Below are positions 8,814 to 63,924 of a stretch of DNA of 64,000 nt, one piece after another. How positions within the stretch are numbered: the stretch's first letter is position 1; every line of letters starts with the position of its first letter. This stretch comes from an uncultured Bacillota bacterium (GTDB lineage: Bacteria > Bacillota > Dehalobacteriia > UBA7702). A program made the translations under genes and the position numbers. The stretch covers positions 761 to 64,760 of the forward strand of contig CADBQN010000037.1 of assembly GCA_902796855.1 (NCBI GenBank). Reading direction: 5' to 3'. Below the pieces are notes generated by a model. It made no database searches, was not told the origin of the DNA, and saw only the letters and a program-made list of their open reading frames with translations.

Positions 8814-9601
8814 TGAATCTGACGCTGGAAAACGTCATCTATCGCTACGAAACGGGGAACGAGGTGCTGAACGGCATCGACCTGACGCTGAGCGACGGCG
8901 AAATCCTCTGTCTCCTCGGACCCAACGGCAGCGGCAAGACGACGCTGTTCAAGCTGATTTTGGGGCTGATGCCCCCTTCCGGCGGCCGGGTGACGCTGAA
9001 CGGCAGGGACGTCACCGCCTATCCCCGGCGGGAACTGGGGAAGATCCTCGGCTACGTACCGCAGAACCACATCCCCGCCTTTCCCTACAGCGTTTTGGAC
9101 ATGGTCGTGATGGGCCGCAACGCCCACCTGGAGAACGGCCGCGCCCCGAAACAGAGGGATTACGACATCGCCCGCGGCGCCCTTGAGGACATGGGCATCG
9201 AGAGCCTGGCGGAAAAGAACTACATCCGCATCAGCGGCGGCGAACGGCAGCTGGTGCTCATCGCCAGAGCCCTGGCCCAGCAGGCGAAGATCCTCATTTT
9301 GGACGAACCCACCGGCAACCTCGATTTCGGCAATCAGGTCCGGGTGCTGCGGCAGATCCGCCGCCTGGCCAAAACGGGCATCGCCGTCCTGATGTCCTCT
9401 CACTTCCCCGGCGACGCCTTTCAGAACGCCAGCAGAGCGGCGCTTTTGAAGGATGGGAAAATCCGGGAAAGCGGCGCGCCGGAGGAGGTCATCACCGAAA
9501 AGAACCTAAAAGCGCTCTACGGCGTCGACGTCTCTGTCGCCGCCGCCCGGGACAGGGCGGGCAATCTGTACCGCGTCTGCGTACCGGCGCGGCGGGACTG
9601 A
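8813..9601 (+). CDS. ABC transporter ATP-binding protein (FepC/MolC-like)
   Basis: GPNGSGKT, ISGGERQ, ILDEPT; TAATG overlap with the permease stop. Confidence 0.95.
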   Translation: MNLTLENVIYRYETGNEVLNGIDLTLSDGEILCLLGPNGSGKTTLFKLILGLMPPSGGRVTLNGRDVTAYPRRELGKILGYVPQNHIPAFPYSVLDMVVMGRNAHLENGRAPKQRDYDIARGALEDMGIESLAEKNYIRISGGERQLVLIARALAQQAKILILDEPTGNLDFGNQVRVLRQIRRLAKTGIAVLMSSHFPGDAFQNASRAALLKDGKIRESGAPEEVITEKNLKALYGVDVSVAAARDRAGNLYRVCVPARRD

Positions 9602-9701
9602 GCCTTTCTATATAAAACACTGCCAACCAGCTTTTTTTATGACGCGGCCGCCGGGCGGAAAGCTCCGCCGCGCCGCGGCAAAACCCCAAAGGAGGTTCAC
9701 C

Positions 9702-10769
9702 ATGAAAAAAATCATCACCTTGTTTCTCTGCCTGACCCTTTTGTTTTCTTTCTGCGCCTGCGGCGAGGAACCGGAACCCGCCGCGGATACGAGGACCGTC
9801 ACGGACATGGCCGGAAGGGAAGTGGATATCCCGGCAGACGTCGAGACCGTCTTCGCCACCGGCGCCGTCGGCGGCGTGTTCATGTATACCCTGGCTCCGG
9901 ATATGCTGGCGGCCTGGAACGGCGATCTCCGCGACAGCGAAAAGGCCTTCATCGACGAGGCTTATTGGGATCTGCCGGCGCTGGGCACCTGGAAGGGCAC
10001 GAATTTCACCGGAAGCATGGAAGATCTCATCGCCCTGGAGCCCGATATCATCATCAGCATGGGCGACGTCACCGTGGACCACGCCTCGGAAGCCGATGAG
10101 ATCGAATCGTTATGCGGGATTCCCGTGGTCATGGTCGACGGCGGACTCGGGAATTTGGATAAGGCCTACACCTTCCTCGGCGACATCCTGAACCGACAGG
10201 AGCGCGCCGAGGAGCTGGGGGCCTATTGCTCGGAAACGCTTGCCGCCGTGGAAGAAGCGGTGAAGACCGTCCCCGAGGAAGAGATCCGGACCGTCTATTA
10301 CGGTGAGGGCGTCGACGGCCTGGAAACGGAAGTGCCCGGTTCCCTCAACGCCGAAGCCATCGCCGCCGCCGGCGGCGTCAACGTGGCGGAAACGGCGGAG
10401 ACCGGCGTTTCCCGGATCAGCGTCTCCCTGGAACAGGTCGCCGCCTGGGATCCCGATGTCATCCTCCTCAGCGGTGACGGCGACACCGCTCACGAACTCT
10501 ATCAGTACGTCCGCGCCAACGAAGGCTGGGCCACGGTGCCCGCCGCGGCCCGGGGCGACGTCTTTGAAATCCCTTACGGGCCCTACGACTGGATCAACCG
10601 TCCGCCCTCGGTGGCCCGGATCATCGGCGTGGAATGGCTGGCGCGGCTGCTGTATCCCGAAGCGTACCCCGTTGACCTGAACGAGCGCATCCGCCAGTAT
10701 TACTCCCTCTTCTACCACCGTGACCTCACCGACGAGGAAATCACGGCCCTGCTGGAATACGCGGGATAA
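9702..10769 (+). CDS. ABC transporter substrate-binding lipoprotein (type III, BtuF/MolA-like fold)
   Basis: Lipoprotein signal ending FSFCAC, VTDMAGREVDIP, VSLEQVAAWDPDVI; RBS GGAGG. Confidence 0.9.
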   Translation: MKKIITLFLCLTLLFSFCACGEEPEPAADTRTVTDMAGREVDIPADVETVFATGAVGGVFMYTLAPDMLAAWNGDLRDSEKAFIDEAYWDLPALGTWKGTNFTGSMEDLIALEPDIIISMGDVTVDHASEADEIESLCGIPVVMVDGGLGNLDKAYTFLGDILNRQERAEELGAYCSETLAAVEEAVKTVPEEEIRTVYYGEGVDGLETEVPGSLNAEAIAAAGGVNVAETAETGVSRISVSLEQVAAWDPDVILLSGDGDTAHELYQYVRANEGWATVPAAARGDVFEIPYGPYDWINRPPSVARIIGVEWLARLLYPEAYPVDLNERIRQYYSLFYHRDLTDEEITALLEYAG

Positions 10770-10781
10770 GGAGGGAAAAGG

Positions 10782-11372
10782 ATGGAACTGACCGGCATCG
10801 TTTTAGGCGGCGGCAAGAGCCGGCGCATGGGCGGGGAAGATAAGACGCTGCTGAAAATCAACGGCGAGACCTTGGTGGAACGCGCCGTTAAAGCGCTGCG
10901 GCCCTGGTGCGGCGATATCATCATCGCCTCCAACGCCGCCGCCAAATACCGCGTCGCTAACACCGTCGAGGTGATCGACTCCTGGCCGGACATCGGCCCC
11001 CTCGGCGGGATCCACGCGGGCCTCGCCGCCGCGGAACATGACTTTGCCATGGTCGTCGCCGGGGATATGCCCTTCTTTTCCGGCCGTCTGACGGCGTGCC
11101 TGCTTCGCCGCAGAACGCCGGAAGCCCAGATCGTCATCGCAGACGGCGGCAGGGGGCCGGAGCCCCTCTGCGCCCTCTATGGCAGAACGTGCCTGCCGCT
11201 GATCGAGGAGATGGTCCGGCGGGGCGTTTACGCTCCCCGGGAGCTGCTGCGCGAAACAAAGCACGTCATCGTGACGAAGGAGGAACTTCGCCGGGATGAC
11301 GTGCCGGAAAACATCTTTTTTAATCTGAACTCCGCCGAGGACAAACGCCGCTGGCTCGGGGGGACGCTTTGA
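10782..11372 (+). CDS. mobA: Molybdenum cofactor guanylyltransferase
   Basis: GIVLGGGKSRRMGGEDK, GPLGGIHAGL, GDMPF, EPLCALY, FFNLNS. Confidence 0.9.
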   Translation: MELTGIVLGGGKSRRMGGEDKTLLKINGETLVERAVKALRPWCGDIIIASNAAAKYRVANTVEVIDSWPDIGPLGGIHAGLAAAEHDFAMVVAGDMPFFSGRLTACLLRRRTPEAQIVIADGGRGPEPLCALYGRTCLPLIEEMVRRGVYAPRELLRETKHVIVTKEELRRDDVPENIFFNLNSAEDKRRWLGGTL

Positions 11373-11378
11373 CGCGCC

Positions 11379-13685
11379 TCAGCCGCCGCTTTGCCGGAAA
11401 GTCGTGATCTCATAGCCGCCGCCGTCGCTGAAAACGGTGACGGCGCCGTCGAGATCCGTGCGGTAGCAGGGAATCTTCCGCTCCCGCCAGTAGGAGACGA
11501 CGTCGTCATCGGGGTGTCCGTAGTTGTTTTTGCCGACGCTGATGACGGCGGCCTCGGCGTCCACGGCTTCGTAGAAGGCGGGGTCGAAACTGTTTTTACT
11601 GCCGTGATGGGGAATTTTCAGAACGTCGGCGTCCAGGCCGGCGTTTTCTTTTGCCCCCGCGTCGAGGGCGGCGAGGCCGGAACCCTCGACGTCGCCGGTG
11701 AAGAGGACGGAAAAATCACCGTAGGTCAGCCGCGCCACCAGGGAAAGGTCGTTGTCCTCACCTTCGCTGTCCGCGTCGGGCCAGAGGATTTCCAGGCGGA
11801 CACCGCCGCCAAGGTCGAGGACGTCGCCGCTTTTCACGGTGGCGACGGCGGCGTCTTCGCCTTCGGCGACGGCGATCTTATCGGCGAAGCGGCCCTCCGC
11901 CGCGGCGGGGAAGCAGAGGGCTTCCAGCTCGAAATCGGCGGCAAGATACGGCAGGGCGCCGCTGTGATCGTCGTCGTTGTGGGAGAGAAAGACCGTCTCA
12001 ATGTCGTCGACGCCCCGGGAGAGCAGGAAGGGACGCAGCGTATAGTAGGTCTCGCCGCCGCCGCGGCGGTCGCAGGCGTCCATCAGATAGTCGGAGCCGT
12101 CGGGGGTGCGGATATAGATGGCGTCGCCCTCGCCCACGGACAGAAAGGTCACTTCCAGCCCGCTGCCGCCGCCAAAGGACAGGGGCAGCGAAAACAGGAC
12201 GAACACCGCCGTCATGGCGGCGAGGGAAAAGAAGCGCCGCTCCCGGACGGCGGGGAGAAAGACGATGAGGGCGACGGCGGCGTAAACGGCAAGGAGCCAG
12301 ACGAGACCGAAATCGCCTTTATACAGATAGGCGAAGGGCAGACGGGCGCCGAGGGTCGCGACCGTCAGGATGAAACTGCCCAGCAGACCGCAGGGGATCA
12401 GCGCCAGCGCGCCCAGGACCGGCGCGACCAGGCAGAGGATCAGCGCCGTGAAGCAGAGCGCCACCATGGCGCCGACGATCATACAGCAGAAGGAGCCGAG
12501 GAGCACGGCGACGAAACTGACGACGTGGAAGTAATAAGCCAGCATGGGGATCAGGCCGATCTGCGCCGCCAAAGTCACGAAAAGCGCGTCCCGACCGGGG
12601 AAAGACCACGGCACGCGCTGTTTCAGCCAGGGGACCAGAATCAAAATAGAGAAGATCGCCAGGAAAGAGAGCTGGAAGCCGGGGCGCGTCAGCGTCAGCG
12701 GGTCCCAAAGCAGCAGCAGGATTGCCGCCAGACCGAGGCCGTTAAAGGCGTTCCGCTCCCGGCCGAGGAGGACGGCGCCGGCGACCATCAGGCACATCAC
12801 CGCGGCCCGCACCACCGACGGGGAGAACCCCGTCATGGCGGCGTAGAGCAGGAGACAGACGGCGGTGAGCGCCGTTTTGCCCTTTGAACCGAGGCGGAGC
12901 AGGGCGCCGAGAGCGCCGAGGAACAGCGCGGCGTAACCGACGTGCAGACCGGAAACGGCGAAACAGTGCCGGATGCCGCTTTGGGAGAGGACGCTGTTGA
13001 CGCCGTGGCTGAGACCGGAGGTATCGCCGAAAAAGACGCCGCGGATCAGCGCCGCCTGTTCCTGCGGCAGATAGGAGAGGCTCCGCTCAAAACGGTGCTT
13101 GAGGGCGTAGGCCAGCCGCAGCAGCGGCTGACCGCCGCCCCGCTCAGCGACGGTGACACCGCCGCCGTACAGCGCGGAAAAGACGCCGTAAAGGCGGCTT
13201 TGGCGGTGATAGGTCTCAAAATCGAAACTGCCGGGGTTCAGCGTTTCCGAGGAGAGGAACGAGCCGTCGAGAACGAGGCGGTCCCCGTAACCGACGTCGG
13301 CGTCCTTTTCGGTGACGGCGATGACGTCCACGGGATGTATCAGCGCTTCCCCGTCGACATCTTCCACGCGGAAGCGGAAGCGCAGGGAGCGTTCGCGGGG
13401 CGAAGGATCGTCGGCGACGCGGCCGCCGAGGGAGGCCGTTTCCAGGCCTGCGAAGGGATCGGCGGCCGTGATGGCCTCACGGAACTCCCCGTAGACGAAA
13501 CCGAGGACGAGGACGGCCAAAGCCAAGGCGAACAGCGGCTTTTTGCCGAAACGGAGCAGACAGAACACGGCCGCGGCGGCGGGGAGACAGCCAACGGCGA
13601 TGAGGAGCGGCGTAAGGTTGAACAGCAGACTCAGGGTCAGCGACGCCATCAGGGCGGCGGCGCTGACGAACAGCGGCGTTTTCAT
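11379..13685 (-). CDS. comEC: DNA uptake competence protein ComEC/Rec2
   Basis: HCFAVSGLHVG, SPSVVRA, GFQLSF, metallo-beta-lactamase domain SHNDDDHSG and HHGS, YGHP. Confidence 0.95.
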   Translation of the reverse strand: MKTPLFVSAAALMASLTLSLLFNLTPLLIAVGCLPAAAAVFCLLRFGKKPLFALALAVLVLGFVYGEFREAITAADPFAGLETASLGGRVADDPSPRERSLRFRFRVEDVDGEALIHPVDVIAVTEKDADVGYGDRLVLDGSFLSSETLNPGSFDFETYHRQSRLYGVFSALYGGGVTVAERGGGQPLLRLAYALKHRFERSLSYLPQEQAALIRGVFFGDTSGLSHGVNSVLSQSGIRHCFAVSGLHVGYAALFLGALGALLRLGSKGKTALTAVCLLLYAAMTGFSPSVVRAAVMCLMVAGAVLLGRERNAFNGLGLAAILLLLWDPLTLTRPGFQLSFLAIFSILILVPWLKQRVPWSFPGRDALFVTLAAQIGLIPMLAYYFHVVSFVAVLLGSFCCMIVGAMVALCFTALILCLVAPVLGALALIPCGLLGSFILTVATLGARLPFAYLYKGDFGLVWLLAVYAAVALIVFLPAVRERRFFSLAAMTAVFVLFSLPLSFGGGSGLEVTFLSVGEGDAIYIRTPDGSDYLMDACDRRGGGETYYTLRPFLLSRGVDDIETVFLSHNDDDHSGALPYLAADFELEALCFPAAAEGRFADKIAVAEGEDAAVATVKSGDVLDLGGGVRLEILWPDADSEGEDNDLSLVARLTYGDFSVLFTGDVEGSGLAALDAGAKENAGLDADVLKIPHHGSKNSFDPAFYEAVDAEAAVISVGKNNYGHPDDDVVSYWRERKIPCYRTDLDGAVTVFSDGGGYEITTFRQSGG

Positions 13686-13686
13686 C

Positions 13687-14040
13687 CTATTTCACCGTCA
13701 GCGCCGCTTCGATCTCGCTTAGCTTCCCTTGGCCGACGACGCCCCGGGCCGTGAGATCGGCGACGGAGGTGAAGGCGCCTTCCGCCTCGCGGCTGGCGAC
13801 GATCTTTTCGGCGGTGACGGCGCCGATGCCCGGCACCGCCGCCAGTTCCTCCGCCGAAGCCGTGTTGAGGTCGACGGCAGCCTTTTCCGTCTCCGCGCCG
13901 CTTTCGCCGTCCGCGGCGTTCTCCTGATAGACAAAGCCCGTCGCTCTCAGGACGTGCTGACCGCAGAGGACGCCGCCGCCGAAGCAGACCGCGCCGAAAA
14001 TCACCAGCGCCAGCAGGATCCATGTTTTCTTTTCGCTCAT
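13687..14040 (-). CDS. comEA: ComEA-family helix-hairpin-helix DNA-binding protein
   Basis: N-terminal TM segment, VDLNTASAEELAAVPGIG; directly upstream of comEC. Confidence 0.9.
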   Translation of the reverse strand: MSEKKTWILLALVIFGAVCFGGGVLCGQHVLRATGFVYQENAADGESGAETEKAAVDLNTASAEELAAVPGIGAVTAEKIVASREAEGAFTSVADLTARGVVGQGKLSEIEAALTVK

Positions 14041-14067
14041 TATTTTCCCCTCATTTCCCGTTTTCGA

Positions 14068-14097
14068 TTGACAACGCTCCGTTTGTCATTGTATAAT
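14068..14097 (+). promoter_or_regulatory. sigmaA promoter of the tRNA
   Basis: TTGACA-N18-TATAAT. Confidence 0.8.
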
Positions 14098-14114
14098 AAA
14101 TATTGCGTTAAAGC

Positions 14115-14189
14115 GGGCCTATAGCTCAGCGGCAGAGCCCCCGGCTCATAACCGGTTGGTCCTTGGTTCGATCCCAAGTGGGCCCACCA
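14115..14189 (+). tRNA. tRNA with CAT anticodon, most likely tRNA-Ile2 (lysidine)
   Basis: GGGCCTA acceptor pairs with TGGGCCC, then ACCA; anticodon arm CCGG-CTCATAA-CCGG; T-loop GGTTCGATCCC; sequence style of Firmicute Ile2 rather than Met. Confidence 0.92.
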
Positions 14190-14246
14190 AAGGGCGGCGA
14201 GGGCCGAAAGGTCTTTAAAGATTCCGGCCTTCCCCGCCTGCCCGCG

Positions 14247-14277
14247 AAACCGCGCCCGCCGACGGCGCGGTTTTTTT
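14247..14277. terminator. Intrinsic terminator between the tRNA and the Crp/Fnr gene
   Basis: AAACCGCGCC-CGCCGAC-GGCGCGGTTT followed by a T run. Confidence 0.75.
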
Positions 14278-14968
14278 ATTTGAACAGCTCGTCGGGACGC
14301 TTGATGATAAAGTGGTTCTTCTCAAACTCGATGAGCCCTTCTCTCTTCATCCGCGACAGCTCCGCCGACAGCGCCGAACGGTCGGCGCCGAGGTAATCCG
14401 CCATTTCCTGGCGGTTGAAGGGGATCACAAAATCAACGCCGCCCTGATACTGAGCCTGTTCGTCCAAAAAGGAGCTGATTTTCCGGCGCAGGGAGTGCTG
14501 GGTGATGTGGCGGAACTTCCGCATCAGGCTTAGATTCGTCTGAGAAAAAATGGTGATGACGTTGAAGATCATCCGCTTGTGGATATCGCACAGCGTTTCG
14601 CAGCCCCAAAAGAGCCGCTCGGCGTCGATGAGGAGGACATGGCTGTCCTCCGCCGCGACGATGCTGAGATTCTCGTAAAAATCGTCCATCAGCAAAGCCA
14701 TGCCGAAGATCTCGTTTTGGCGGGCGTTCGTCAGGATCGACCGGTTCCCTTCCAGATCGGTGCAGGCCATAAAGACGCTCCCCCGCAAAACGATGCCGAG
14801 GAGGCGCTTTTCCTCGTTTCGGCGGAGGATGGCGCAGTCCTTGGGGAAGAAATAGCCCCGGGCCGAAAGGCAGCCGAGGGCCTTTTCGATCTCGGCCGCG
14901 GTCAGCCCGGCAAAGAGCTGAACTTCGGCCATTTCCGCGGGTTCGATCTTTTCGGAAAAACGCTCCAT
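14276..14968 (-). CDS. Crp/Fnr family transcriptional regulator
   Basis: cNMP-like domain (GIVLRGSV..GNRSIL..EIFG) and HTH IPFNRQEMADYLGADRSALSAELSRM. Confidence 0.92.
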   Translation of the reverse strand: MERFSEKIEPAEMAEVQLFAGLTAAEIEKALGCLSARGYFFPKDCAILRRNEEKRLLGIVLRGSVFMACTDLEGNRSILTNARQNEIFGMALLMDDFYENLSIVAAEDSHVLLIDAERLFWGCETLCDIHKRMIFNVITIFSQTNLSLMRKFRHITQHSLRRKISSFLDEQAQYQGGVDFVIPFNRQEMADYLGADRSALSAELSRMKREGLIEFEKNHFIIKRPDELFK

Positions 14969-15050
14969 TTTTTCTCCTTCCCGTTGTCATTACAACGGAT
15001 TTTTTCCTTATTATACACTATAATTAAGAAAAATCAACAGGAGGTGTTCT

Positions 15051-15425
15051 ATGAATCCCAAATTTTTTATCTGTAAACACTGCGGGAATGTCATAACCCA
15101 TGCCTATGCCTCCGGAGCTACCGTCAGCTGCTGCGGAGAGGAAATGCTCGAATTGATTCCCAACACCGTGGATGCCGCCAAGGAAAAACACGTGCCCGTC
15201 ATCGAAAAGATCGACTGCTGCACCGTGAAAGTCAAGGTCGGCGAAGCGGAACACCCGATGACGGAAAAGCACTACATCAGCTGGATCGCCCTGGATACCG
15301 GGAAGAACCTGCTGCTTCGTCAGCTGACGCCGTCGGACGCGCCGGAAGCCGTTTTTGCCGTTGCCGAAGGGGACGGGCTCACGGCCTACGCCTATTGTAA
15401 TTTACATCAGCTTTGGAAAAACTAA
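15051..15425 (+). CDS. dfx: Desulfoferrodoxin / superoxide reductase
   Basis: [31 protein letters not shown]. Confidence 0.95.
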
Positions 15426-15462
15426 ACCATATTTCACCGAAACAGAAAGGAACCTGAGAAAC

Positions 15463-15624
15463 ATGCAAAAATACGTATGCGAAATCTGCGACTGCATCTA
15501 TGACCCCGCCGTCGGCGATCCCGATAACGGCATCGAACCCGGCACCGCCTTTGAAGATCTTCCCGATGATTGGACCTGCCCCGACTGCGGCGCCGGCAAA
15601 GATTCCTTTGCCCCGATGGACTGA
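15463..15624 (+). CDS. Rubredoxin
   Basis: [32 protein letters not shown]; start ATG 15463 after AGAAAGGAA. Confidence 0.95.
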
Positions 15625-15660
15625 GCGGGAAGCGCTTCTCAACCGTAAGGGAGTAACAAC

Positions 15661-15900
15661 ATGGATAACAAAGTAGCCGTCGTCGGCATCATCCTTCGGG
15701 ACGTTGCCGCCGTACCGGCGCTCAATGAAATTCTCAGCAGCTACGATCAGTACATCGTCGGCAGGATGGGTCTGCCCCACGTCAAGGATGATCTCCGCGT
15801 GATCAGCATCATCATCGACGCCCCCTCTGACGTCATCGCCTTTTTCACCGGAAAGATATCCCAGCTTGAGGGCGTGTCCTCCCAGGCGCTCTACGCCTGA
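15661..15900 (+). CDS. TM1266-family ACT-like protein (putative Fe-hydrogenase system regulator)
   Basis: VAVVGIIL..LNEILSSY..IVGRMGLP..ISIIIDA..TGKISQLEGV. Confidence 0.8.
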   Translation: MDNKVAVVGIILRDVAAVPALNEILSSYDQYIVGRMGLPHVKDDLRVISIIIDAPSDVIAFFTGKISQLEGVSSQALYA

Positions 15901-16027
15901 GCGGCGCGGCCTTAACGGATCGATGGAATTTCCTGCTTACTCTCAAACCTCATAAAAACACTTCAGCGGTTGCGATGCCATTGCAACCGCTTGATGTGCG
16001 TATAATTCCAATTCTTATTCAGAAAGG

Positions 16028-20248: not shown

Positions 20249-20382
20249 AAAACAAGCGCAGAAACGAGCAGAAAGGCCATGCCCGCCCCGGCGGGAGCGG
20301 CCTTTTTCGTTTGACACGGCGGCGAAAATCATCTATAATTTGAGTGGAATCCGTTCCGAAAAACGAGGAGGAAGACCCGGCC

Positions 20383-21192
20383 ATGATGAACGATCCCCTG
20401 TTTCTGTGCCGCATGATGATGCGCCTGTATACCGTCGCCCCGGACGAAAACGGCGTCAGCCGCAGCCCGGCGCTGTGGGAAAGCTATCAGGAAATCGAGG
20501 AAGGGCTTTTCGCGGCCTTTCGGGCCGAGAACATCCGCCCCGTGCCGGTGCGGGTGCTTTCCGATTTCAACGGCACGATCCGTTCCGTACTGGAACTGGT
20601 GTTCTGCGCCGCGGAGCCAACGATCCCCATCCCCGAGGAGCTCTACCGCCTCTTTGGCGATTACGGCGTCAAAGGCTTTACCGCCCCGGCGGAGCCGCCG
20701 GTGATCCGCCTGGCCTATACGGGGCGCTGCTACGACTACGAGACGAAAACGCGGCTCATCACCGACGGCCTGCAGATCGGCTCTCTGGGGAAAATCGCCC
20801 TGGATTTCTACTCCCTGGACGAAATGACAAAGGCCGGCGTCTCCTGCCGCCTGACCCACGAGATCCTCCACGTCTTCGGCGTTTCCGAAGAGGAAATGGT
20901 CTACTATAAACCCAAAGCCTACCTCGGGCTCCTCGACCACGTCAACCGCCTCAGCGATAAAGTCCTCGCCGCCGCCGAAGCGGCGCGGCCGGTCTTTGAG
21001 CGCTCGGCGGGGAGCATCGCCGCGGCGAACCCCCAATGGTTGGCGGCCCTGACCGACCTGGGCCAAAAGCTGAAGGACAGCGGCTATCCCGACGCGCCGG
21101 AGCGCGCCGCCAAAACAGCGCTGCGGCTGCCGGAGAACGTGATCGACGGCGGCACCGTCACCTACGCCGTCCGCGACGTCCTCTATATGTAG
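20383..21192 (+). CDS. Hypothetical protein with HEXXH motif (possible zincin-like metallopeptidase)
   Basis: LTHEILHVFG; RBS GAGGAGG; host-like codon usage; TAG stop. Confidence 0.7.
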   Translation: MMNDPLFLCRMMMRLYTVAPDENGVSRSPALWESYQEIEEGLFAAFRAENIRPVPVRVLSDFNGTIRSVLELVFCAAEPTIPIPEELYRLFGDYGVKGFTAPAEPPVIRLAYTGRCYDYETKTRLITDGLQIGSLGKIALDFYSLDEMTKAGVSCRLTHEILHVFGVSEEEMVYYKPKAYLGLLDHVNRLSDKVLAAAEAARPVFERSAGSIAAANPQWLAALTDLGQKLKDSGYPDAPERAAKTALRLPENVIDGGTVTYAVRDVLYM

Positions 21193-30261: not shown

Positions 30262-31602
30262 CTATTCGTTTTCGTCCCCGTTCCGGGTCATCAGTTCCAG
30301 CAGCTCCTGATTTTGGACGCGGAGCTGCTGCATCTGATGGAGCCTGGTGAGGATCGTGGCGGCCTGGGCGCGGGTGGCGTTGTCCAGCGGCGAAAAAGCG
30401 CCGCCGCCGGTGCCGTTCATCACGCCTTTTTCCGTCACCGAGGCCACGGCTCCCTTCGCCCAGTGGTGGATATCGGCTTCGTCGGTGTAGCTGACCTGGG
30501 GCTGGTCGCCGACGTGGAAACCGATGAATTTCATGTAGTTGACGATCATCACCGCCGCCTGTTCCCTGGTAACGTAATCATCGGGGCCGAACCTGCCGCC
30601 GCCGTAGCCGGAAACGATGCCGTTCTCGGCGGCCCAGGCCACGGCGTCGCTGTAATATTTGCCCAAAGCGACGTCGTCAAAGGGCGTTTCCTTCGCCGCG
30701 GGGATGCTCTCCCCGGACATACGGCAGAGCACCGTGGCGAACATCGCCCGGGTCATCGGGTATTCGGGGCCGAATTTATCCTCGCTGAACCCCAGCATCA
30801 GACCGTTTTCCTTGACGTAGCAGATGTATTCATAGGCCCAGTGCTCCGAAAGCTTCGTTTCGTCGTAGGCGTAGGGATCCACCGGTTCCGGCGGACCGAG
30901 GTCGACGCCGTCGGCGGGAGCGTTCGTATAGGTGCGTCCGTCCGCCATTTCAATGCCCTTGCGGCGGAAGAGCTCGCTGACGGTGACAAAGGTATAGCCC
31001 TGGCTTTGCAGCTCGTCGATGGCGGCGACGGAGCCCTTCACCGACGTGGGGTGGATATCGTGGACGAGAATGATGGAGCCTTCCCTGGCGGCGCTGACGA
31101 TGTTCCGCTTCACGGTGGCGGCATCGCGGTATTTCCAGTCCAGTGGATCCACGGACCAAAGGATGATCTTGCGCCCGGCCATGCTCTTCTGAGAGGCGGA
31201 GATACTGCCGTAAGGCGGGCGGAGCATCAGTTTGCCGACATCCTCACCGACGGCGCTGTCAATGGCGTTTTCCGTGGATTCCAGCTGATTGAAGAAAGCG
31301 CTCTGCCCCAGGGTGGTGAGTTTTGGGTGGTTCCAGGTGTGGTTGGCAAGCTGGTGGCCTTCTTCGTATTCCCGCTTCACCACGGCGGGATATTTCTGGA
31401 CGCAGGTGCCGACGAGGAAGAACGTGGCTTTGACGTTGCGGACCGCTAAAGCGTCCAGGAGTTCGTTGGTATAGGCGCCGGGGCCGTCATCGTAGGTGAT
31501 GGCGATGAGCTTCTCAGCGGCGGCGACGCTGCGCGGCGCTGCGGCGGTTCCGGTTAGAGCCAGCGCGGCCGCGAGTACGATTATGAGCAGTGTTTTTTTC
31601 AT
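30262..31602 (-). CDS. Polysaccharide (NodB) deacetylase with three SLH domains
   Basis: Signal peptide, TYDDGP, NHTWNHP, RPPYG, LVHD; SLH repeats FGPEYPMTRA/FGPDDYVTRE/FSPLDNATRA. Confidence 0.92.
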   Translation of the reverse strand: MKKTLLIIVLAAALALTGTAAAPRSVAAAEKLIAITYDDGPGAYTNELLDALAVRNVKATFFLVGTCVQKYPAVVKREYEEGHQLANHTWNHPKLTTLGQSAFFNQLESTENAIDSAVGEDVGKLMLRPPYGSISASQKSMAGRKIILWSVDPLDWKYRDAATVKRNIVSAAREGSIILVHDIHPTSVKGSVAAIDELQSQGYTFVTVSELFRRKGIEMADGRTYTNAPADGVDLGPPEPVDPYAYDETKLSEHWAYEYICYVKENGLMLGFSEDKFGPEYPMTRAMFATVLCRMSGESIPAAKETPFDDVALGKYYSDAVAWAAENGIVSGYGGGRFGPDDYVTREQAAVMIVNYMKFIGFHVGDQPQVSYTDEADIHHWAKGAVASVTEKGVMNGTGGGAFSPLDNATRAQAATILTRLHQMQQLRVQNQELLELMTRNGDENE

Positions 31603-32725
31603 TTGAACGTTCCTTTCCGGCGCGGACATCAAATCTTGAGCGGTTTCGGTTCCCGGCGGTCCGGGCGGCGGCAGCCGTGCCGTTCCTGCCGAGGTGACGG
31701 ACAATCCCCACGGCGGAGACGATGATCACACAGCCGCAGAAAATCAGATAAGCCCAGGGAAAACCTTCTTCCTCATCGTTTTCCCCCGTTTTGGCGCTGT
31801 CTTTCGCCGTTTCCTCCGTCTTCGTCTGATCCTTCGTTTCCTCCGTATCGGCGCTGTCCGCGGCGGGAGCGGCGGCGCCGTTCTTCATCGCCGCCTGTTC
31901 TTCCGCGCTCAGCGGGCCGAGATCCACACCGTTATACTCGGCGTTCATATAAATCTTGCCGGCTTCCAGCGTTTCGCCCTTACGGCGGAAGAGCTCGCTG
32001 ACGGTGACAAAGGTATAGCCCTCGTCCATCAGCTCATCGAGGGTGGCGACACAGCCGTCGACGGAGGTGTCGTAGAGATCGTGCATCAGGATGATGGCGC
32101 CGTCGGCGGCCTGGGCGCGGATCCGCGAGGCCACGGCGTCGGCGTTGCGCGATTTCCAGTCCAGCGTATCCACGGACCAGAGGATCAGCGGCACGTCCAC
32201 GGCGGCGCAGACGGCTTCGTTGGCGCTGCCCCCGGGGGGACGCAGCAGCGTTTTGCCGATGTCGGTGCCGATAACGTTGGAGATGGCCTCGTTGGTGCGG
32301 TTGACCTGGTCGTTGATCGTGGCGGCGTCACCGCCGGTGAGGGTGAAATGGGTATACGTGTGGTTGGCGATTTCGTGGCCTTCATCGTATTCCCTTTTGA
32401 TCAGATCGCTGAATTCTTCAATCCGCTCACCGACAACGAAGAACGTGGCTTTGATGTTTCGGGCTTTCAGTTCGTCCAAAAGCTTTTCCGTATTGGCGCT
32501 GGGCCCGTCGTCAAAGGTCAGGGCCATGAGGCCGCCTTTGATTTTCACCGAGGAGGTCTCCCCGGCGGCCTTCAGCTCCTGCGCCTTGGCGGCGGCGTTT
32601 TCCTTGCCCGCGGCGACGGTATCGGCGAAGGAGGTGCCTCCTTCCCCGGCGCCGAGAACGGGCAGGGCGTATATCATCAGCGAAACAGCGATCACGGACA
32701 GGATCGCGACGATTTTTCTTTTCAT
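31514..32725 (-). CDS. Polysaccharide (NodB) deacetylase with C-terminal membrane anchor
   Basis: TFDDGP, NHTYTH, RPPGG, LMHD; acidic linker then TM FPWAYLIFCGCVIIVSAVGIV. Confidence 0.9.
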   Translation of the reverse strand: MKRKIVAILSVIAVSLMIYALPVLGAGEGGTSFADTVAAGKENAAAKAQELKAAGETSSVKIKGGLMALTFDDGPSANTEKLLDELKARNIKATFFVVGERIEEFSDLIKREYDEGHEIANHTYTHFTLTGGDAATINDQVNRTNEAISNVIGTDIGKTLLRPPGGSANEAVCAAVDVPLILWSVDTLDWKSRNADAVASRIRAQAADGAIILMHDLYDTSVDGCVATLDELMDEGYTFVTVSELFRRKGETLEAGKIYMNAEYNGVDLGPLSAEEQAAMKNGAAAPAADSADTEETKDQTKTEETAKDSAKTGENDEEEGFPWAYLIFCGCVIIVSAVGIVRHLGRNGTAAAARTAGNRNRSRFDVRAGKERSNEKNTAHNRTRGRAGSNRNRRSAAQRRRR

Positions 32726-33744
32726 GATACCGGACTCTTTTTCTGTGCAGATTTCGGGCAGATCAGCCCGATGAGGAAGCCGTAGACCCCGTGGAAGGCA
32801 CGGCGGTAGAGCGGCGTGGAGAACACGGCGACCAGGAGGACGCAGAGGGAAAGAACAACGGCGTATTCCGCGCCGTGGGGCAGGGAGACAGCGGCAAAGA
32901 GCATGTCGCAGAGGATCAGGAAATAGGTGTGCGAAAGGTAGAGCGGCAGCGTATCGCCGCCGATATAGGCGAGGAAGTTCTTTTTCGCCGGCATGGCGGC
33001 AAGAACGAGGCCGCCGGTGAGCACCGCCATGGCAAGGGCGCCGTAATAGAGACCGAGGCCCAGCCAGACGCTGTCGAAGGACGCCATGTTCATGGTGTGC
33101 AGCAAAAGGCTCTTCGCGCCGCCGTAGGAGAGGATCCCCGCTTTCATCAGCATGACCGTGGCAGCGTAGATCGCCGCGAGGAGCGCGATTGCCAGAGGCC
33201 GCGGCAGACGCCGTACTTTGGCGACGTGCTCCGGTCCCGCGCAGTAGCCCAGCAGAAAGAAGAAGAGGAAACCGACGGTCTTATTGATCGCCAGCACCAG
33301 CTCAGCGTCGCTCAGAAACATGATCAGCGGCGAGACGAGAAAGGAGATCAGCAGAATATGCGGGATCCGGATCAGGTCTTTCAGGAACAGCCGCCAGAAA
33401 AACAGCGCCACGATGTACCAGATGGCGTAGCCGGGGTCGAGAAAATGGCGGATGTAGTGGACGCTGCCGTTGGTGAGATATTTGAAGATCACCCAGAAGA
33501 CCTGGGCGACGACGTAGACGAGAAACAGGTTCCGAAACGCCGTTTCCCGGCACTTTTCGACATTCTTTGAGAAAAAGCCGGAAATAAAGATGAACAGCGG
33601 CATATGGAAATAGTAGATGAACACTACAAGGGACCGGGGGATGAGATCCTGTTTCGCGATACAGCAGCCCAGCAGGTGACAGAGGACGACGGTAATGATC
33701 AGCAGGCCTTTTACGTTGTCATACAGATAATCTCGTTCCGACAT
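32722..33744 (-). CDS. Acyltransferase-3 family membrane protein
   Basis: DNVKGLLI..H, IYYFHMPLFIFISGFF, WYI, LYLSH. Confidence 0.9.
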   Translation of the reverse strand: MSERDYLYDNVKGLLIITVVLCHLLGCCIAKQDLIPRSLVVFIYYFHMPLFIFISGFFSKNVEKCRETAFRNLFLVYVVAQVFWVIFKYLTNGSVHYIRHFLDPGYAIWYIVALFFWRLFLKDLIRIPHILLISFLVSPLIMFLSDAELVLAINKTVGFLFFFLLGYCAGPEHVAKVRRLPRPLAIALLAAIYAATVMLMKAGILSYGGAKSLLLHTMNMASFDSVWLGLGLYYGALAMAVLTGGLVLAAMPAKKNFLAYIGGDTLPLYLSHTYFLILCDMLFAAVSLPHGAEYAVVLSLCVLLVAVFSTPLYRRAFHGVYGFLIGLICPKSAQKKSPVS

Positions 33745-57396: not shown

Positions 57397-58317
57397 TTAT
57401 TTTGCGACGGCTTCTGGCTGTGTTTTGGCTTTTCTTGCGCTGCGGAACATGGTGATCGATGTGATGACAAGAACACCGGAAACCATCCATTTAATGGCAT
57501 CAAGAGGAATCGACGTAATGATAAACAATCCGATGAGAACACCTACTGTGCCGGCCAGGCTGACGGCAATGATTGTTTTGATATCATAGAGAGGTTTGCC
57601 GGTTTTCTTATATTCACGAACAAAGCGATAGCTGGCAAAAGGCTGCATGATCGCGGCGGATCCCATAAAGAGGGGATAAGCTACCAAAGGGCTCAACCCG
57701 AGAAGGAATACGGTGGCCATCATAGGGGCATACATCCCGATCCCGATTGTCATAAGAGAACCGAGTATGAAAGCCACTACGCCTAGAACAGCCAGTTTCC
57801 AGCCAAAGAGACCTGTTGCCTCGCCGCCGCCGGGCATCAAGCCGAGCTGACGGGCAACAATGATGGCGGCAACGATGATGAGAGCCACTCCCATGGCATA
57901 CCGAATGGCATTGATATTCAGTTTAGAAACAATGCCTGCACCGATAAAACCGCCCAAACCGCAGCAGGCGGCACTGACGATCAAGGTGATCGGAGCTACT
58001 TCAATGGTCGTGATGGTCCCCAGATTCATAACGATCAACGTAAATAAAGTGCAGGTGTTGAGTGTTCCCGGAATGAGATTATCGGGAACGGCTTTGGTAA
58101 ATTTAAACCATGCGGTTAATGTAGCAAAAGAGCCGATTCCCATAAAATCAAAGAACTGTGTTACAAGACCCGCAAGGCTCAAGTTGATCCAGCCTTTCTT
58201 TTCTTTTAGCGGTTCCCGGAGTTCTTTTTTCTTGAAAACATCGGTAAAAAGATAGGCGAGGACTGCGCCGTTAACCAAAACAACAACAGCGAGAAAGATA
58301 ATTGCTAATGTATCCAT
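57397..58317 (-). CDS. TauE/SafE (TSUP) family permease
   Basis: FFDFMGIGSFAT, IPGTLN, MTIGIGMYAP, AYPLFMGSAA; multiple TM segments. Confidence 0.85.
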   Translation of the reverse strand: MDTLAIIFLAVVVLVNGAVLAYLFTDVFKKKELREPLKEKKGWINLSLAGLVTQFFDFMGIGSFATLTAWFKFTKAVPDNLIPGTLNTCTLFTLIVMNLGTITTIEVAPITLIVSAACCGLGGFIGAGIVSKLNINAIRYAMGVALIIVAAIIVARQLGLMPGGGEATGLFGWKLAVLGVVAFILGSLMTIGIGMYAPMMATVFLLGLSPLVAYPLFMGSAAIMQPFASYRFVREYKKTGKPLYDIKTIIAVSLAGTVGVLIGLFIITSIPLDAIKWMVSGVLVITSITMFRSARKAKTQPEAVAK

Positions 58318-59233: not shown

Positions 59234-60622
59234 TCAAAGAAGGCCTGCTTCTTTTTTGAATTTGGTTACACTGTTGATGGGAACGTCAAGAATATCGGCA
59301 ATGCGGAATTTTGTCTGAATGCCAAGGCCTGCGTCCGGTCTTACCTGAACCGTACCGATGTTAAGTTCTTCCCTGAGTTCTTTCATTTCGGCACAGTCTG
59401 CAAGATAACTTACAGGACAGTTCAATTTATCCGCGACATATTTTTTTGCGTCGTCGATTTTATAACCTTGAAGCTGCATACGGAAAACGAGGTCGCCGGC
59501 AGTTCTTATGCCGCCCATACCCGCGCATGCTTCATGGGTGAGACCCTGACCGAAGGTGTCTCCACCGCCTACCTACAATCCGTCAACACCGGCGATTTCG
59601 ACCAGAGCCTTATCCACACGGGAAACCGCATCGGCAGAAGGAATGAGGGAAAGCGGGATCGCGCCAACGCCCATGCCTACATTGGCATGAACAGGGATCT
59701 TCGCGACTTTTACGGTTTCTTTGGCAAAGGTTACCACACGGGCAAGATTCCATGCGAGGGATTTGGAGCTGTTGGTATTTACCGCCATACCAAAGATGGA
59801 TACCCCGGCTCTTTCTGCCATTTTTACCTGCTGATGGGGATAAAGGCCGGCAATGATCTCATCGTCAAATTTTAATTCGCCGTGCATACCGATGTTGAAT
59901 TCACCTGCCATACCGACTTCAAAACCGGTGGTGGGGTATTTTTCTCGCAGGATGCGAACGGCTTCGAGGGATGCTTTTACATCAGCGTCGCCGGATGCGC
60001 CAACGGTATCGAAGTTGATGCCGTCTGCGCCGGACTCGATCATGCCCGAGGCAACGTAAACGATATCGCTAATAGCGTGTTCGATTGCTTCTTCCTGAGC
60101 TTCCCTTGCTTCTGTGATCTTACCTGCGGGGAGAAGTTCTGCCCAGTTATCACAAGGACCATCGGGTTTGGTATAGAGCCCCATATTGGGCATCGCACCG
60201 TAAAGCAAAGGCAAAGTGGTCAATAATTGAGCCTGTTCCATTGCCTGGCGTTCTTCGGCTGCAATGGCTTTTAAGGGTTTGTAACTGTAGTCCACATGGC
60301 AAAGTTCAAAACTGTCGGAAGCGAGAGCGCGTTCTTGTGTAATGATGGCCTGCAGACGATCCATGGGGATACCGTTGCGGATGCTGAGTTTCAAGGTACC
60401 CGCGTCATAGGAAAGAACAATCTCTTTTCCCGGTTCCACGGATACGATCTTTTGGGGGCTAGCAATGATTTCATAGAGATAATCCATTTCATCCTGAGTC
60501 ATTGCGGGGATCTGAGCGCGTTCTGCCGCGTCCTGAGTACCGGCTTCGATATCGGCACGGATCTCGGCTTCGGTCATTTCTGCTACAAAGTTGTCGCCGT
60601 AGCGAGTGAGAATTTCAGACAT
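59234..60622 (-). CDS. mtbB: Pyrrolysine-containing dimethylamine:corrinoid methyltransferase family protein (462 aa, UAG at codon 350)
   Basis: The 349-aa and 94-aa ORFs are one frame joined across TAG 59575-59573: AGVDGL-(TAG)-VGGGDTFG..GIRTAGDLV; MtbB motifs DYSYKP, YGAMPNMGLY, ADGINFDT, PHQQ, AWNLAR, GMGVG. Confidence 0.93.
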
Positions 60623-60663: not shown

Positions 60664-60679
60664 AGCAATTACCGTGCCA
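60664..60679 (-). promoter_or_regulatory. sigma54 promoter of mtbB-mtbC
   Basis: TGGCACGGTAATTGCT, essentially consensus -24/-12. Confidence 0.9.
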
Positions 60680-60742
60680 AAAAATAATCGCAAATAAATC
60701 ACCTGCTTGATGCGGTGATTGCTGAGGAAGTTATCGATGTAA

Positions 60743-61829: not shown

Positions 61830-62372
61830 TTAAAAGGTCAGCTCGGCGTCAATGAGGCGGCAGTAAAGCTGATCGTCCTCCATATAGGTATCGAAAACGC
61901 CGGTCACGGTGATCTCACTGTCAATGGCGGGGTAATCGTCGGGGTAGCTGTGATCTCCCTCCCAGACGAACTCGATGCCCTGGGCGCAGCAGGCGGTGGC
62001 GTCGGCGATGAGGCAGGCGAAATAATTCTGGCTTTCCCCCTCATACACCTGGAACGTCCCGGCCATTTTCACCGATTTGCCGAGATAGGAATCGGGGTCG
62101 TTGACCATATCGAAGACCTGGGAATAGACCATCGTGGCGTTGAGCTCCGTCAGGTCGATGTCATAGCTGCCGCTGTCCGTCCCGGCATCGCCGGAGGAAG
62201 CGGCGTTCCCGCCGCCGTTTTCGTCACCGCCGCCGTTCTCCGCTTCGTCCATGATATCGGAGACCGTCGGCGAAGTGCTGTTATCGCCGCGGCTCGCGGC
62301 GGAATCGCCGCCGCAGCCGACGAAAAAGACAACAAGACACAGCGACAAAAGAATCAAAACTGTTTTTTTCAT
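61830..62372 (-). CDS. Lipoprotein associated with a metal ABC transporter
   Basis: Lipobox FFVGC, YLGKSVKMAG, ACLIADATACCAQGIEF; ends the metal ABC operon. Confidence 0.8.
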   Translation of the reverse strand: MKKTVLILLSLCLVVFFVGCGGDSAASRGDNSTSPTVSDIMDEAENGGGDENGGGNAASSGDAGTDSGSYDIDLTELNATMVYSQVFDMVNDPDSYLGKSVKMAGTFQVYEGESQNYFACLIADATACCAQGIEFVWEGDHSYPDDYPAIDSEITVTGVFDTYMEDDQLYCRLIDAELTF

Positions 62373-63223
62373 GATCTGACACCTCCGGGAATCATACCGA
62401 TCAGATAGCAGAGAGCGAACACGACGATGTCCACGGCGACGATGGTGGAGCCGACGGGCGTACCGCCGACGATGGAAACAACCATCCCCAGCAGGGAACA
62501 GGCCACCGAAAGCACGGCGGAACAGATCGTCACCGAGCGGAAGCTCTTGAAGAGCCGCATCGCCGAAAGCGCCGGGAAGATCACCAGCGCCGAAATGAGC
62601 AGGGAACCGACGAGGTTCATGGCCAGAACGATGATGACGGCGATGATGACGGCGATCAGCAGGTTATAGCCGTTGGCCTTTGTCCCCGCGGCTCTGGCGA
62701 AATCCTCGTCAAAGGTAACGGCGAAGATCTTGTTGTAAAAGAGAATGAACACGGCGACAACGATGACGGAGAGGATGATGCAGAGCCACACCACCGGCAG
62801 GGTCAGCGTCAGGATCGACGTGGAACCGAACAGCGTGGAACAGACGTCGCCGGAGATGTTGGCGGATTTGGAGAACAGGTTCATCAGCAGATAGCCGATG
62901 GCCAGGGAGCCGACGGAGATCATGGCGATGGCGGCGTCCCCCTTGATCTTCGCGTTCTGCCCGGTGCGCAGCAGCAGCACGGCGCAGGCCACGGTAATCA
63001 CCAGCACCAGCGGCATTTCGTTGCTCATGTCGAGGATCGTCGCCACGGCCAGCGCGCCGAAGGCCACGTGGGAGAGACCGTCGCCGATGAAGGAGAACCG
63101 TTTCAGCACCAGCGTCACGCCGAGGAGCGAGGAGCAGAGGGCGATGAGCACACCGACGATGAGGGCGTAGCGGACGAAGGGATATTGAAAATAGAGAAAG
63201 AGCTTTTCCCAAAGGGCGTCCAT
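62369..63223 (-). CDS. Zn/Mn ABC transporter permease (ZnuB-like)
   Basis: GDGLSHVAF, LFGS, TFDEDFA, VGSLLISAL. Confidence 0.93.
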   Translation of the reverse strand: MDALWEKLFLYFQYPFVRYALIVGVLIALCSSLLGVTLVLKRFSFIGDGLSHVAFGALAVATILDMSNEMPLVLVITVACAVLLLRTGQNAKIKGDAAIAMISVGSLAIGYLLMNLFSKSANISGDVCSTLFGSTSILTLTLPVVWLCIILSVIVVAVFILFYNKIFAVTFDEDFARAAGTKANGYNLLIAVIIAVIIVLAMNLVGSLLISALVIFPALSAMRLFKSFRSVTICSAVLSVACSLLGMVVSIVGGTPVGSTIVAVDIVVFALCYLIGMIPGGVRS

Positions 63224-63924
63224 CAGCGATCCCCTCCTTTCCCGAAACCGCTGGCGGCGGCGGTCAGATACTCCTCTTTCGTGCCGAAAAAGACGGCGCC
63301 GCCGACGCGGAGGATGTGACTGCCGTAGCGCAGGGCGGCGTCGATGTCGTGGGAGATCATGATGACCGTGATGCCGTCCTCACCGTTGAGCCTGGCGATG
63401 AGGTCATACATCTCCCCGGTGACCTGGGGATCGAGACCGGAAACCGGCTCGTCCAGCAGGAGCATCTTCCCGGTGGCGCAGAGCGCCCGGGCCAGCAGAA
63501 CGCGCTGCTGCTGACCGCCGGCAAGCTCCCGAAAGCACCGTTTTGTCAGGGGTGTGAGCCCCATCTTGGCGATGTTTTCCGCGGCGAGGGCCTTTTCCGC
63601 CCTGCCGTAGAAGGGGCGCAGGCCGCGGCGGCCCTGACAGCCGGAGAGCACGACCTCCCAGACGGAGGCGGGGAAATCCCGCTGAATGGCGGTCTGCTGC
63701 GGCAGATAGCCGATCTCCGTCCGTTTCAGTCCGTCCCCGGTCAGGACGCGGCCGCCGAGAGGGGCGCGCAGACCGAGGATCGTCTTCATCAGCGTCGATT
63801 TCCCGGAGCCGTTCTCCCCGACGACGCAGAGATAATCGCCGGCCTCCACCTGAAAATTCAAATCCTTTAAAATCGCTTTCCCTTCGTAGCCGAGGGAAAG
63901 GTCTTCACAGATGAGCTGTGCCAT
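63223..63924 (-). CDS. Zn/Mn ABC transporter ATPase (ZnuC-like)
   Basis: GENGSGKST, YLPQ, LAGGQQQR, LLDEP, ISHD. Confidence 0.93.
   Translation of the reverse strand: MAQLICEDLSLGYEGKAILKDLNFQVEAGDYLCVVGENGSGKSTLMKTILGLRAPLGGRVLTGDGLKRTEIGYLPQQTAIQRDFPASVWEVVLSGCQGRRGLRPFYGRAEKALAAENIAKMGLTPLTKRCFRELAGGQQQRVLLARALCATGKMLLLDEPVSGLDPQVTGEMYDLIARLNGEDGITVIMISHDIDAALRYGSHILRVGGAVFFGTKEEYLTAAASGFGKGGDR

Follow-up and report, generated by a model that had tools for sequence, protein, structure and literature searches.

Pyrrolysine (Pyl)-dependent MtbB has been known in bacteria since 2007 (PMC1976440), and the Pyl-containing MttB of gut bacteria has been catalogued (PMC7593587, PMC10653893). In Methanosarcina barkeri, the MtbB1-3 proteins contain UAG-encoded pyrrolysine, with a single UAG at a position conserved throughout the class (PMC2933860) and a cognate corrinoid protein encoded alongside. 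The locus described here encodes a member of the same family, likewise with a single UAG, and an MtbC-like corrinoid protein beside it. It lies in a 64,000-nt stretch of DNA from an uncultured Bacillota bacterium (the window; contig CADBQN010000037.1 of assembly GCA_902796855.1, positions 761 to 64,760 of the forward strand), whose minus-strand gene mtbB is interrupted by an in-frame TAG and very probably encodes a pyrrolysine-dependent methyltransferase of the MtbB family. The phenomenon is a known one, bacterial Pyl methylamine methyltransferases having been described since the 2000s, and it is found here in a further gut lineage. Less ordinary are the presence of 16 methyltransferase genes with a TAG in only 2.1 Mb, a predicted sigma-54 regulon that serves largely these genes, the small number of TAG stops and the order of the pyl genes.

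In comparison with M. barkeri MtbB1-3, the present system has a bacterial host, a synthetase split into PylSc and PylSn, and a sigma-54-type promoter, while its methyl acceptor is probably tetrahydrofolate, leading into the Wood-Ljungdahl pathway, and not coenzyme M. The delta1 symbiont of Olavius algarvensis (Zhang and Gladyshev 2007, PMC1976440) likewise has several Pyl-MtbB and Pyl-MttB genes together with pylT, pylSn, pylSc and pylBCD, and there, too, no shared RNA structure was found after the UAG; it is a deltaproteobacterium with eight such genes (6 MtbB and 2 MttB), whereas the present host is a member of the Bacillota with 16 of them in 2.1 Mb. 'Candidatus Formimonas warabiya' DCMF, also one of the Bacillota, is reported to have 82 genes of the MttB superfamily, seven of them with Pyl, together with a non-Pyl MtmB homologue, and to express Pyl-MttB proteins (PMC9768040). 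Its MtbB proteins are 81% and 60% identical to the window MtbB; its genome is far larger, and its paper is silent on MtbB regulation and on sigma-54. Further, Bilophila (Kivenson and Giovannoni 2020, PMC7593587) and MAGICdb (PMC10653893) provide examples of gut Pyl-MttB users whose genes are misannotated at the TAG; Bilophila genomes are without mtbB, in contrast to the six copies found here. For 'Cryptoclostridium', the nearest named relative, the literature that was found does not, in its available text, deal with methylamine metabolism.

The MtbB reading frame and its UAG in the pyrrolysine column

Read across its in-frame stop, mtbB encodes a complete MtbB, and its one UAG falls in the column that the family conserves for Pyl. 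From the ATG at 60622, its frame contains 349 codons before the TAG and 112 codons after it, and the read-through product has 462 residues. The TAG corresponds to residue 350, which is flanked as AGVDGL-O-VGGGD (minus-strand letters GGA TTG TAG GTA GGC GGT GGA GAC); the predicted peptide across this residue is AGVDGL-O-VGGGDTFGQGLTHEACAGMGGIR. When translated with table 11, the same DNA yields a 349-aa open reading frame (ORF; 60622..59573) and a 94-aa ORF in the same frame (59518..59234). The Pfam family PF09505 (Dimeth_Pyl) matches the read-through protein with 605.1 bits (cut-off 25; E 9.4e-182) from residue 4 to 457, covering profile positions 3-462 of 463. Moreover, the NCBIfam equivalog TIGR02368 matches it with 482.2 bits, 113 bits over its cut-off of 369.1. 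The near end-to-end match to PF09505 and the TIGR02368 score rule out a chance frame, and both bear out an earlier note on this DNA, which had read AGVDGL*VGGGD at the TAG (59575-59573) and a further 112 MtbB-like codons. Among 14 control genomes, matches to PF09505 and TIGR02368 were found in M. acetivorans only.

The TAG is also supported at the level of the assembly. In particular, it is spanned without a differing letter by contigs that were assembled from the DNA runs of two studies (X1 record 5, 59451-59734; X4 record 17, 59403-59615); as the window may itself derive from X1, X4 is the independent cover, and the agreement of the two studies rules out an assembly error as the cause of the TAG. 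The runs in which this DNA was found are gut metagenomes of bovine and sheep origin.

A scan of one genome per species returned at least 598 pattern matches, and 492 of those listed encode a relative; the best 80 loci from other genomes were compared with the six copies of the window's own genome after translation across stops. All 86 loci contain exactly one in-frame stop, which is always TAG and always falls in a single alignment column, within the shared context DG[LF]-TAG-[VILA]GxGD. This result upholds the claim of the earlier note that the TAG aligns with the Pyl column, as does the anchoring of the Rfam model RF02509 (see below), and within any one class of methyltransferases the amber position is reported to be conserved (PMC2933860). 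Compared with the window MtbB, the loci have a mean identity of 59% up to the TAG and of 54% beyond it. Among the matches listed, the relatives come from metagenome-assembled genomes labelled Bacillota, Thermodesulfobacteriota, Chloroflexota, Spirochaetota, Aminicenantes and others. Closer to the window, MtbB with one TAG occurs in 6/6 genomes of the same genus, 12/13 of the same family and 6/8 of a second family, and in 0/9 genomes of four further families of the class; PylB is over its cut-off in 18 of the 31 genomes examined.

Public annotation ends these proteins early. Of the best 120 database homologues of MtbB, 118 span no more than 76% of the query, with lengths mostly of 348-350 aa, and the four named bacterial homologues that were aligned all terminate at the aligned ...DGL, which indicates that public gene callers stop at the same place. 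A gene that standard annotation cuts at codon 349 would here be a complete Pyl enzyme. There are also 'full-length' public MtbB proteins with Q at the Pyl column (P0040, P0093 and P0130), which come from short contigs and whose cluster-mates end at the TAG. P0040 and P0093 are 468 aa each; P0093, an archaeal-like protein with ~49% identity to the window MtbB, reads AGVDGI-Q-IGVGD, where the earlier note had given AGVDGI-O-IGVGD for Methanosarcina MtbB. Of the 15 members listed for the 90% cluster of P0040, 11 have a length of 352 aa and the 468-aa forms are from short contigs, and the nearest neighbours of P0040 in a quick tree (L080 and L083) have TAG in the column. Because of these cluster-mates and tree neighbours, the Q is read as the gene caller's choice of code, and in all three proteins it probably arose when genes were called under a TAG = Gln code.

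Pyrrolysine decoding machinery of the genome

The window is one contig (C37) of a 2.11-Mb assembly with 84 contigs and 98.4% completeness. As the earlier note had stated, no pyl gene is found within the 64-kb window. The note had proposed a search of the genome for pylT, pylSn, pylSc and pylBCD and for a RamA-type activator; all of the pyl genes were located on another contig (C5), where the five pyl proteins lie within 6.7 kb and each exceeds its NCBIfam cut-off (Table 1), and three reductive activators of the RamA/RACo type are encoded in the genome. Moreover, ARAGORN predicts 41 tRNAs, of which tRNA-Pyl alone has a stop anticodon. Together with the Pyl column, the full pyl set, the tRNA-Pyl(CUA) and the RamA-type activators support the note's claim that this bacterium decodes UAG as pyrrolysine, and the gene content supports the view that it has what is needed to do so at mtbB.

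In the 20-kb pyl locus (L008, positions 38000-57999 of C5), the order from 9259 to 15924 is pylSc, pylD, tandem repeats, a small membrane ORF, pylT, pylB, pylC, a gene similar to methyl-tetrahydrofolate methyltransferases (MeTr-like) and pylSn. The usual Gram-positive order is pylScBCDSn (PMC2933860), which makes the present one unusual. Between pylD and the membrane ORF are two tandem units of ~210 nt (L008 11140-11552), which are 92-95% alike and each contain a small hairpin followed by a T run; an Rfam scan of these repeats gave no match. One of the three RamA/RACo homologues (contig C44, 16139-16912) has an in-frame TGA, and no tRNA-Sec is present among the 41 tRNAs; the TGA may mark a broken gene, the border of two genes or a selenocysteine codon whose tRNA was not assembled.

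Methyltransferase complement and proposed pathway

The genome contains six PF09505 matches, each with one TAG, of which one is partial (profile positions 155-462), and 18 matches to the MttB family, ten with one TAG and eight with none; the 2.1 Mb therefore encode 16 TAG-bearing methyltransferase genes. In five loci, a corrinoid protein gene follows MtbB. A gene of the MtmB family (PF05369, 223 bits; C44, 12667-14034) has no in-frame stop and is thus a non-Pyl MtmB homologue, similar to that of 'Ca. Formimonas warabiya' (PMC9768040). Further, a search for Pyl beyond the methyltransferases found 84 ORFs with one internal TAG, 27 of which passed a crude coding filter and 10 of these are MtbB or MttB; in the remaining 17, all of which were scanned, no Pfam domain spans the TAG, a result that depends on the crude filter and on Pfam. 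These 17 were rejected as antisense shadows or as neighbouring genes in one frame (such as RadA/DisA, MiaB/YlbF and HAD/MntP).

An AlphaFold2 model of MtbB, built on 26 sequences, has a TIM-barrel-type fold (mean predicted local distance difference test score 91.4, predicted template modelling score 0.92), in which residue 350 lies in a strand (348-351) that is followed by helices up to residue 458. The best Foldseek match is to the N-terminal modules of MetH (E 1e-5, template modelling (TM) score 0.37), and Foldseek returned generic TIM barrels only (MetH and BHMT modules, TM at most 0.38).

In the proposed mechanism, Pyl-tRNA(Pyl) would compete with release factor 1 (RF1) at codon 350 and yield the 462-residue enzyme, with Pyl placed on the barrel strand. 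The enzyme would methylate the Co(I) form of the adjoining MtbC-like corrinoid protein, using dimethylamine or a close analogue, and the RamA-type activators would re-reduce the corrinoid. A pterin-binding methyltransferase, one gene for which lies inside the pyl cluster, may then hand the methyl group to tetrahydrofolate, from which it would enter a Wood-Ljungdahl-type pathway; the genome encodes the acetyl-CoA synthase subunit AcsB/CdhC, and the steps past the first methyl transfer are deduced from gene content only. The mtbB, mtbC-like and permease genes would be transcribed from a sigma-54 promoter, switched on by a neighbouring enhancer-binding protein that is probably the PAS-bearing one, and the pyl genes are apparently under ordinary sigma-70-type control. 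Such a lineage, with its small genome and its bovine and sheep gut habitat, would take a place among the methylamine-consuming bacteria; as these bacteria and methylotrophic methanogens are competitors for di- and trimethylamine, it would bear on rumen methane and on gut trimethylamine levels.

Several points weigh against reading mtbB as a Pyl-dependent dimethylamine methyltransferase. Pyl insertion and the full-length product are predictions from the genes, and dimethylamine as the substrate is deduced from family membership only, within which the window clade is at most 59% identical to other MtbB copies. RF1 is encoded in the genome (523.8 bits, cut-off 423), so that some truncated MtbB product is to be expected. 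The adjoining corrinoid protein is under both NCBIfam cut-offs (TIGR02370, 203.4 bits with a cut-off of 215.3; NF041607 MtbC, 201.5 bits with a cut-off of 350). A sequence search of the Protein Data Bank with MtbB gave 0 matches, which leaves no solved MtbB structure for comparison. Lastly, the one contig on mtbB that comes from an RNA library (X19) lies on the post-TAG part of the gene (59339-59537) with 0 differences, which does not prove transcription; the two RNA runs contained small shares only (0.07 and 0.06), and the parts that they leave uncovered carry no weight either way.

Predicted sigma-54 control and the ambiguity of UAG

The sole exact sigma-54 motif in the window, TGGCACGGTAATTGC at 60679-60665, is found immediately before mtbB, and it recurs at the same distance in the closest orthologues of the locus, L024 and L025, as well as in the paralogous L013; across the 84 MtbB loci with sufficient upstream sequence, 12 have one. 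When the pattern is relaxed to TGG[CT]A[CT]N5TTGC, 25 hits are obtained genome-wide, of which 14 are located within 3 kb upstream of an MtbB or MttB gene on the same strand, 11 of them at most 160 nt away. The upstream zones that were searched make up ~2% of both strands, so that ~0.5 hits would be expected by chance. The genome also encodes rpoN (392.8 bits, cut-off 277) and ~16 paralogous sigma-54 enhancer-binding proteins in 2.1 Mb, the majority of which share a contig with MtbB or MttB genes. Overall, mtbB has the marks of a sigma-54 operon, namely a -24 GG/-12 GC motif, a genomic rpoN and two flanking enhancer-binding proteins. The rpoN gene is situated 2 kb from an MttB gene on contig C12. 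An inverted repeat, AATCACC-N10-GGTGATT, is present ~20 nt upstream of the motif (60697-60720, minus strand), to which, judging by its sequence, the activator might bind.

A computational survey of Clostridia lists MttB (COG5598) among the genes predicted to be regulated by sigma-54 (PMC12316311). The present genome is alike in having MttB under predicted sigma-54 control; it differs from the survey's account in that a sigma-54 promoter also precedes mtbB and that 14 of the 25 genomic motifs are at methyltransferase genes. A literature search found no paper that joins pyrrolysine with sigma-54.

The presence of RF1 means that UAG keeps its termination reading and is ambiguous, as the earlier note had held, and TAG still ends some genes. 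All three of the TAG-ending ORFs that the note had named exist; two (13687..14040 and 30262..31704) are backed by Pfam, and the third (20344..21192) has no Pfam match. In a crude gene set of the window, the stops are 28 TGA, 17 TAA and 5 TAG, where one of the five TAG ends is the in-frame TAG of mtbB and another ends an ORF (31694..32785, plus strand) that is probably an antisense shadow of 31514..32725 (minus strand).

The note had further suggested that decoding is conditional, in keeping with sigma-54 control. In this account, the pyl genes would be switched on only when methylamines are present and UAG would otherwise be a normal stop. Prat et al. in 2012 are reported to have found such a case in Acetohalobium arabaticum, with pyl genes on only in the presence of methylamines and UAG mostly a normal stop, and this precedent, the retention of RF1 and the real genes that still terminate in TAG speak for it. 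Moreover, a terminator-like hairpin between pylT and pylB (L008 12360-12377) could allow pylBC to be regulated separately. However, the sigma-54 motif, which is real, is at mtbB and not at the pyl genes: no match with 0 or 1 mismatch was found in or upstream of them, and the sole 1-mismatch match in the 20-kb pyl locus is 1.4 kb downstream of pylSn. Instead, pylT is preceded by a near-consensus sigma-70-type promoter (TTGATA-17-TATAAT with a TG extension, 11/12 positions, ending 17 nt before the gene), and pylSc by a 10/12 match of the same type.

The use of TAG as a stop also counts against conditional decoding. According to crude gene sets from a few genomes, TAG ends 73/1575 genes in this genome (4.6%, Pyl codons included; G+C 57%), 11/157 in another genome of the genus (G001; G+C 46-48%), and 19/173 (G022; G+C 45%) and 33/148 (G028; G+C 43%) in two genomes of the same class, all with PylB over its cut-off, compared to 35/145 (G014; G+C 40%), 37/170 (G019; G+C 40%) and 36/226 (G027; G+C 48%) in genomes of the class without it. 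The TAG share drops as G+C rises, so that the two are confounded; at matched G+C, the comparison of 11/157 with 36/226 points to TAG depletion in the window's genus. This pattern suggests a lasting suppression pressure, which is a better fit than tightly conditional decoding. Back-up stops within 10 codons after the gene end are not enriched (TAG 16%, TAA 22%, TGA 24%). With no sigma-54 motif linked to the pyl genes, a sigma-70-like pylT promoter and rare TAG stops, the note's suggestion is left unsupported, and conditional decoding is possible but doubtful.

A bolder proposal, to be taken as tentative, is that this ruminant-gut lineage of Clostridia is a dedicated methylated-amine methylotroph in which UAG means Pyl more or less constitutively, as in the Pyl archaea. 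Its points are that the 16 genes form the densest bacterial Pyl set found described, that TAG has been purged to ~4% of stops, and that nearly the whole sigma-54 regulon, with its ~16 enhancer-binding proteins, would be given over to substrate-specific control of methyltransferase operons; the window's MtbB clade might also act on a different amine than dimethylamine. Many paralogues with a TAG, operons that are each under predicted sigma-54 control and a low number of TAG stops together offer a testable picture of life with an ambiguous UAG.

Substrate range of the MtbB paralogues

A rather unlikely alternative retains Pyl and the MtbB family and changes the substrate, with six diverged paralogues that serve different methylated amines. 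In a quick tree, the window MtbB belongs to a separate clade of nine rows (Shimodaira-Hasegawa-like approximate likelihood ratio test 100, stem 0.4), and the genome's five full-length copies fall into four or five separate clades, each with relatives elsewhere. After the Pyl, the window clade reads VG[AG]GDT, whereas most other MtbB proteins read VGVGDP or IGHGD. A separate corrinoid protein goes with each copy, several copies also have an enhancer-binding protein to themselves, and the MttB superfamily is known for its substrate diversification (PMC9768040, PMC10653893). However, the margin by which the equivalog TIGR02368 is exceeded favors the family's usual substrate. The MtbB family is not known to have a substrate other than dimethylamine, and the literature searches surfaced none.

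Truncation and other readings of the UAG

It is very improbable that mtbB is a pseudogene or a split gene, in which the TAG is a true stop and the 349-residue product acts alone or with a 94-residue product that starts from the ATG at 59518. Public gene callers do end the protein at the TAG, and RF1 is present; yet a nonsense mutation would not recur in one column of every locus compared across several phyla, and conservation over the 112 codons that follow the TAG is about equal to that over the codons that precede it. The stretch of 19 codons from the TAG to the following ATG is conserved coding sequence. The stop falls within a barrel strand of a confident model, according to which a product ending at residue 349 would be without part of that strand and all that lies beyond it, and the genome has kept a complete pyl set.

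That the UAG is read by something other than Pyl-tRNA, such as a glutamine suppressor or a TAG = Gln code, is hardly credible, as the only CUA-anticodon tRNA among the 41 found is tRNA-Pyl and the Q of P0040 and P0093, which might have argued for it, is most simply the code of the gene caller.

RNA structure after the UAG

The Rfam model RF02509 ('Pyrrolysine insertion sequence mtbB') matches mtbB with its first three positions, UAG, on the TAG (Table 1). It anchors on the UAG in 4/5 of the other mtbB copies of the genome and in 6/6 of the relatives scanned, and the corresponding mttB model, RF02510, anchors on four distinct TAG-bearing mttB loci that were scanned in the genome. Many of the pairs of RF02509 are non-canonical in the mtbB alignment, the 100 nt at the match fold no better than shuffled sequences (z -0.34), covariation is found at 0/24 consensus pairs among nine close relatives, and close relatives fold differently. 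A PYLIS-type RNA structure after the UAG was consequently rejected, and the model was kept as a positional anchor; its match reflects conservation of the coding sequence. Earlier negative reports on RNA structure, concerning bacterial genes and mtbB, agree with this result (PMC1976440, PMC2933860).

Operon neighbours and other features of the window

The features of the mtbB locus and of the pyl cluster are collected in Table 1.

Table 1. Positions of the mtbB and pyl features. Coordinates are those of the window unless a contig is named.
Feature	Position	Strand	Support
mtbB, dimethylamine:corrinoid methyltransferase family gene	59234..60622	-	462 codons, single in-frame TAG, TGA at 59236-59234
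UAG codon 350, predicted pyrrolysine codon	59573..59575	-	86/86 loci column; RF02509 positions 1-3
PYLIS_2 (mtbB), RF02509 match	59476..59575	-	Rfam, 40.3 bits, gathering score 36
Sigma-54 (-24/-12) promoter match TGGCACGGTAATTGC	60665..60679	-	ends 43 nt upstream of mtbB ATG
mtbC-like corrinoid protein, candidate partner of MtbB, 214 aa	58550..59194	-	PF02310 and PF02607 over cut-offs
TauE/SafE-family membrane protein, candidate substrate/product permease	57397..58317	-	PF01925, 48 bits
Sigma-54 enhancer-binding protein with N-terminal PAS, 464 aa	55827..57221	-	PF00158, 221.8 bits; PAS_9; HTH_50
Second sigma-54 enhancer-binding protein, AAA+ and HTH only, 312 aa	60860..61798	-	PF00158, 230.7 bits
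pylSc	contig C5		319.9 bits, cut-off 178
pylD	contig C5		205.4 bits, cut-off 150
tRNA-Pyl (pylT), anticodon CUA	C5:50253-50325		ARAGORN
pylB	contig C5		458.3 bits, cut-off 348
pylC	contig C5		371.1 bits, cut-off 248
Methyl-tetrahydrofolate:corrinoid methyltransferase-type gene inside the pyl cluster	contig C5		PRK07535, 331.7 bits, cut-off 259
pylSn	contig C5		131 bits, cut-off 51

The corrinoid-protein gene begins 40 nt downstream of mtbB. Homologues of the TauE/SafE-family protein that follows it are encoded in or beside the mtbB locus in four of the loci compared (L013, L024, L026 and L028). The PAS-bearing enhancer-binding protein after the permease is a candidate activator of the operon. 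In the second enhancer-binding protein, which shares 67% identity with this paralogue, PF00158 begins at residue 9, the sensor domain is absent, and no open frame extends it upstream; from its sequence, it may be either a PspF-like, always-on activator or a remnant. In three related loci (L025, L026 and L029), mtbB is preceded by a complete enhancer-binding protein that includes the PAS region, whereas in the window the upstream copy has lost PAS and the full-length PAS copy comes after the permease.

Further upstream, at 61830-62372 on the minus strand, a 180-aa ORF has a lipoprotein-like signal peptide with its Cys and no Pfam match, and it adjoins the genes of a metal ABC transporter (permease 62369-63223, ATPase 63223-63924). 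This ORF was considered as the missing sensor of the short enhancer-binding protein and was rejected, as it is in another frame and has the lipoprotein-like signal peptide. Elsewhere in the window, a molybdenum cofactor riboswitch (RF01055, 65.4 bits) is located at 7542-7690 on the plus strand.

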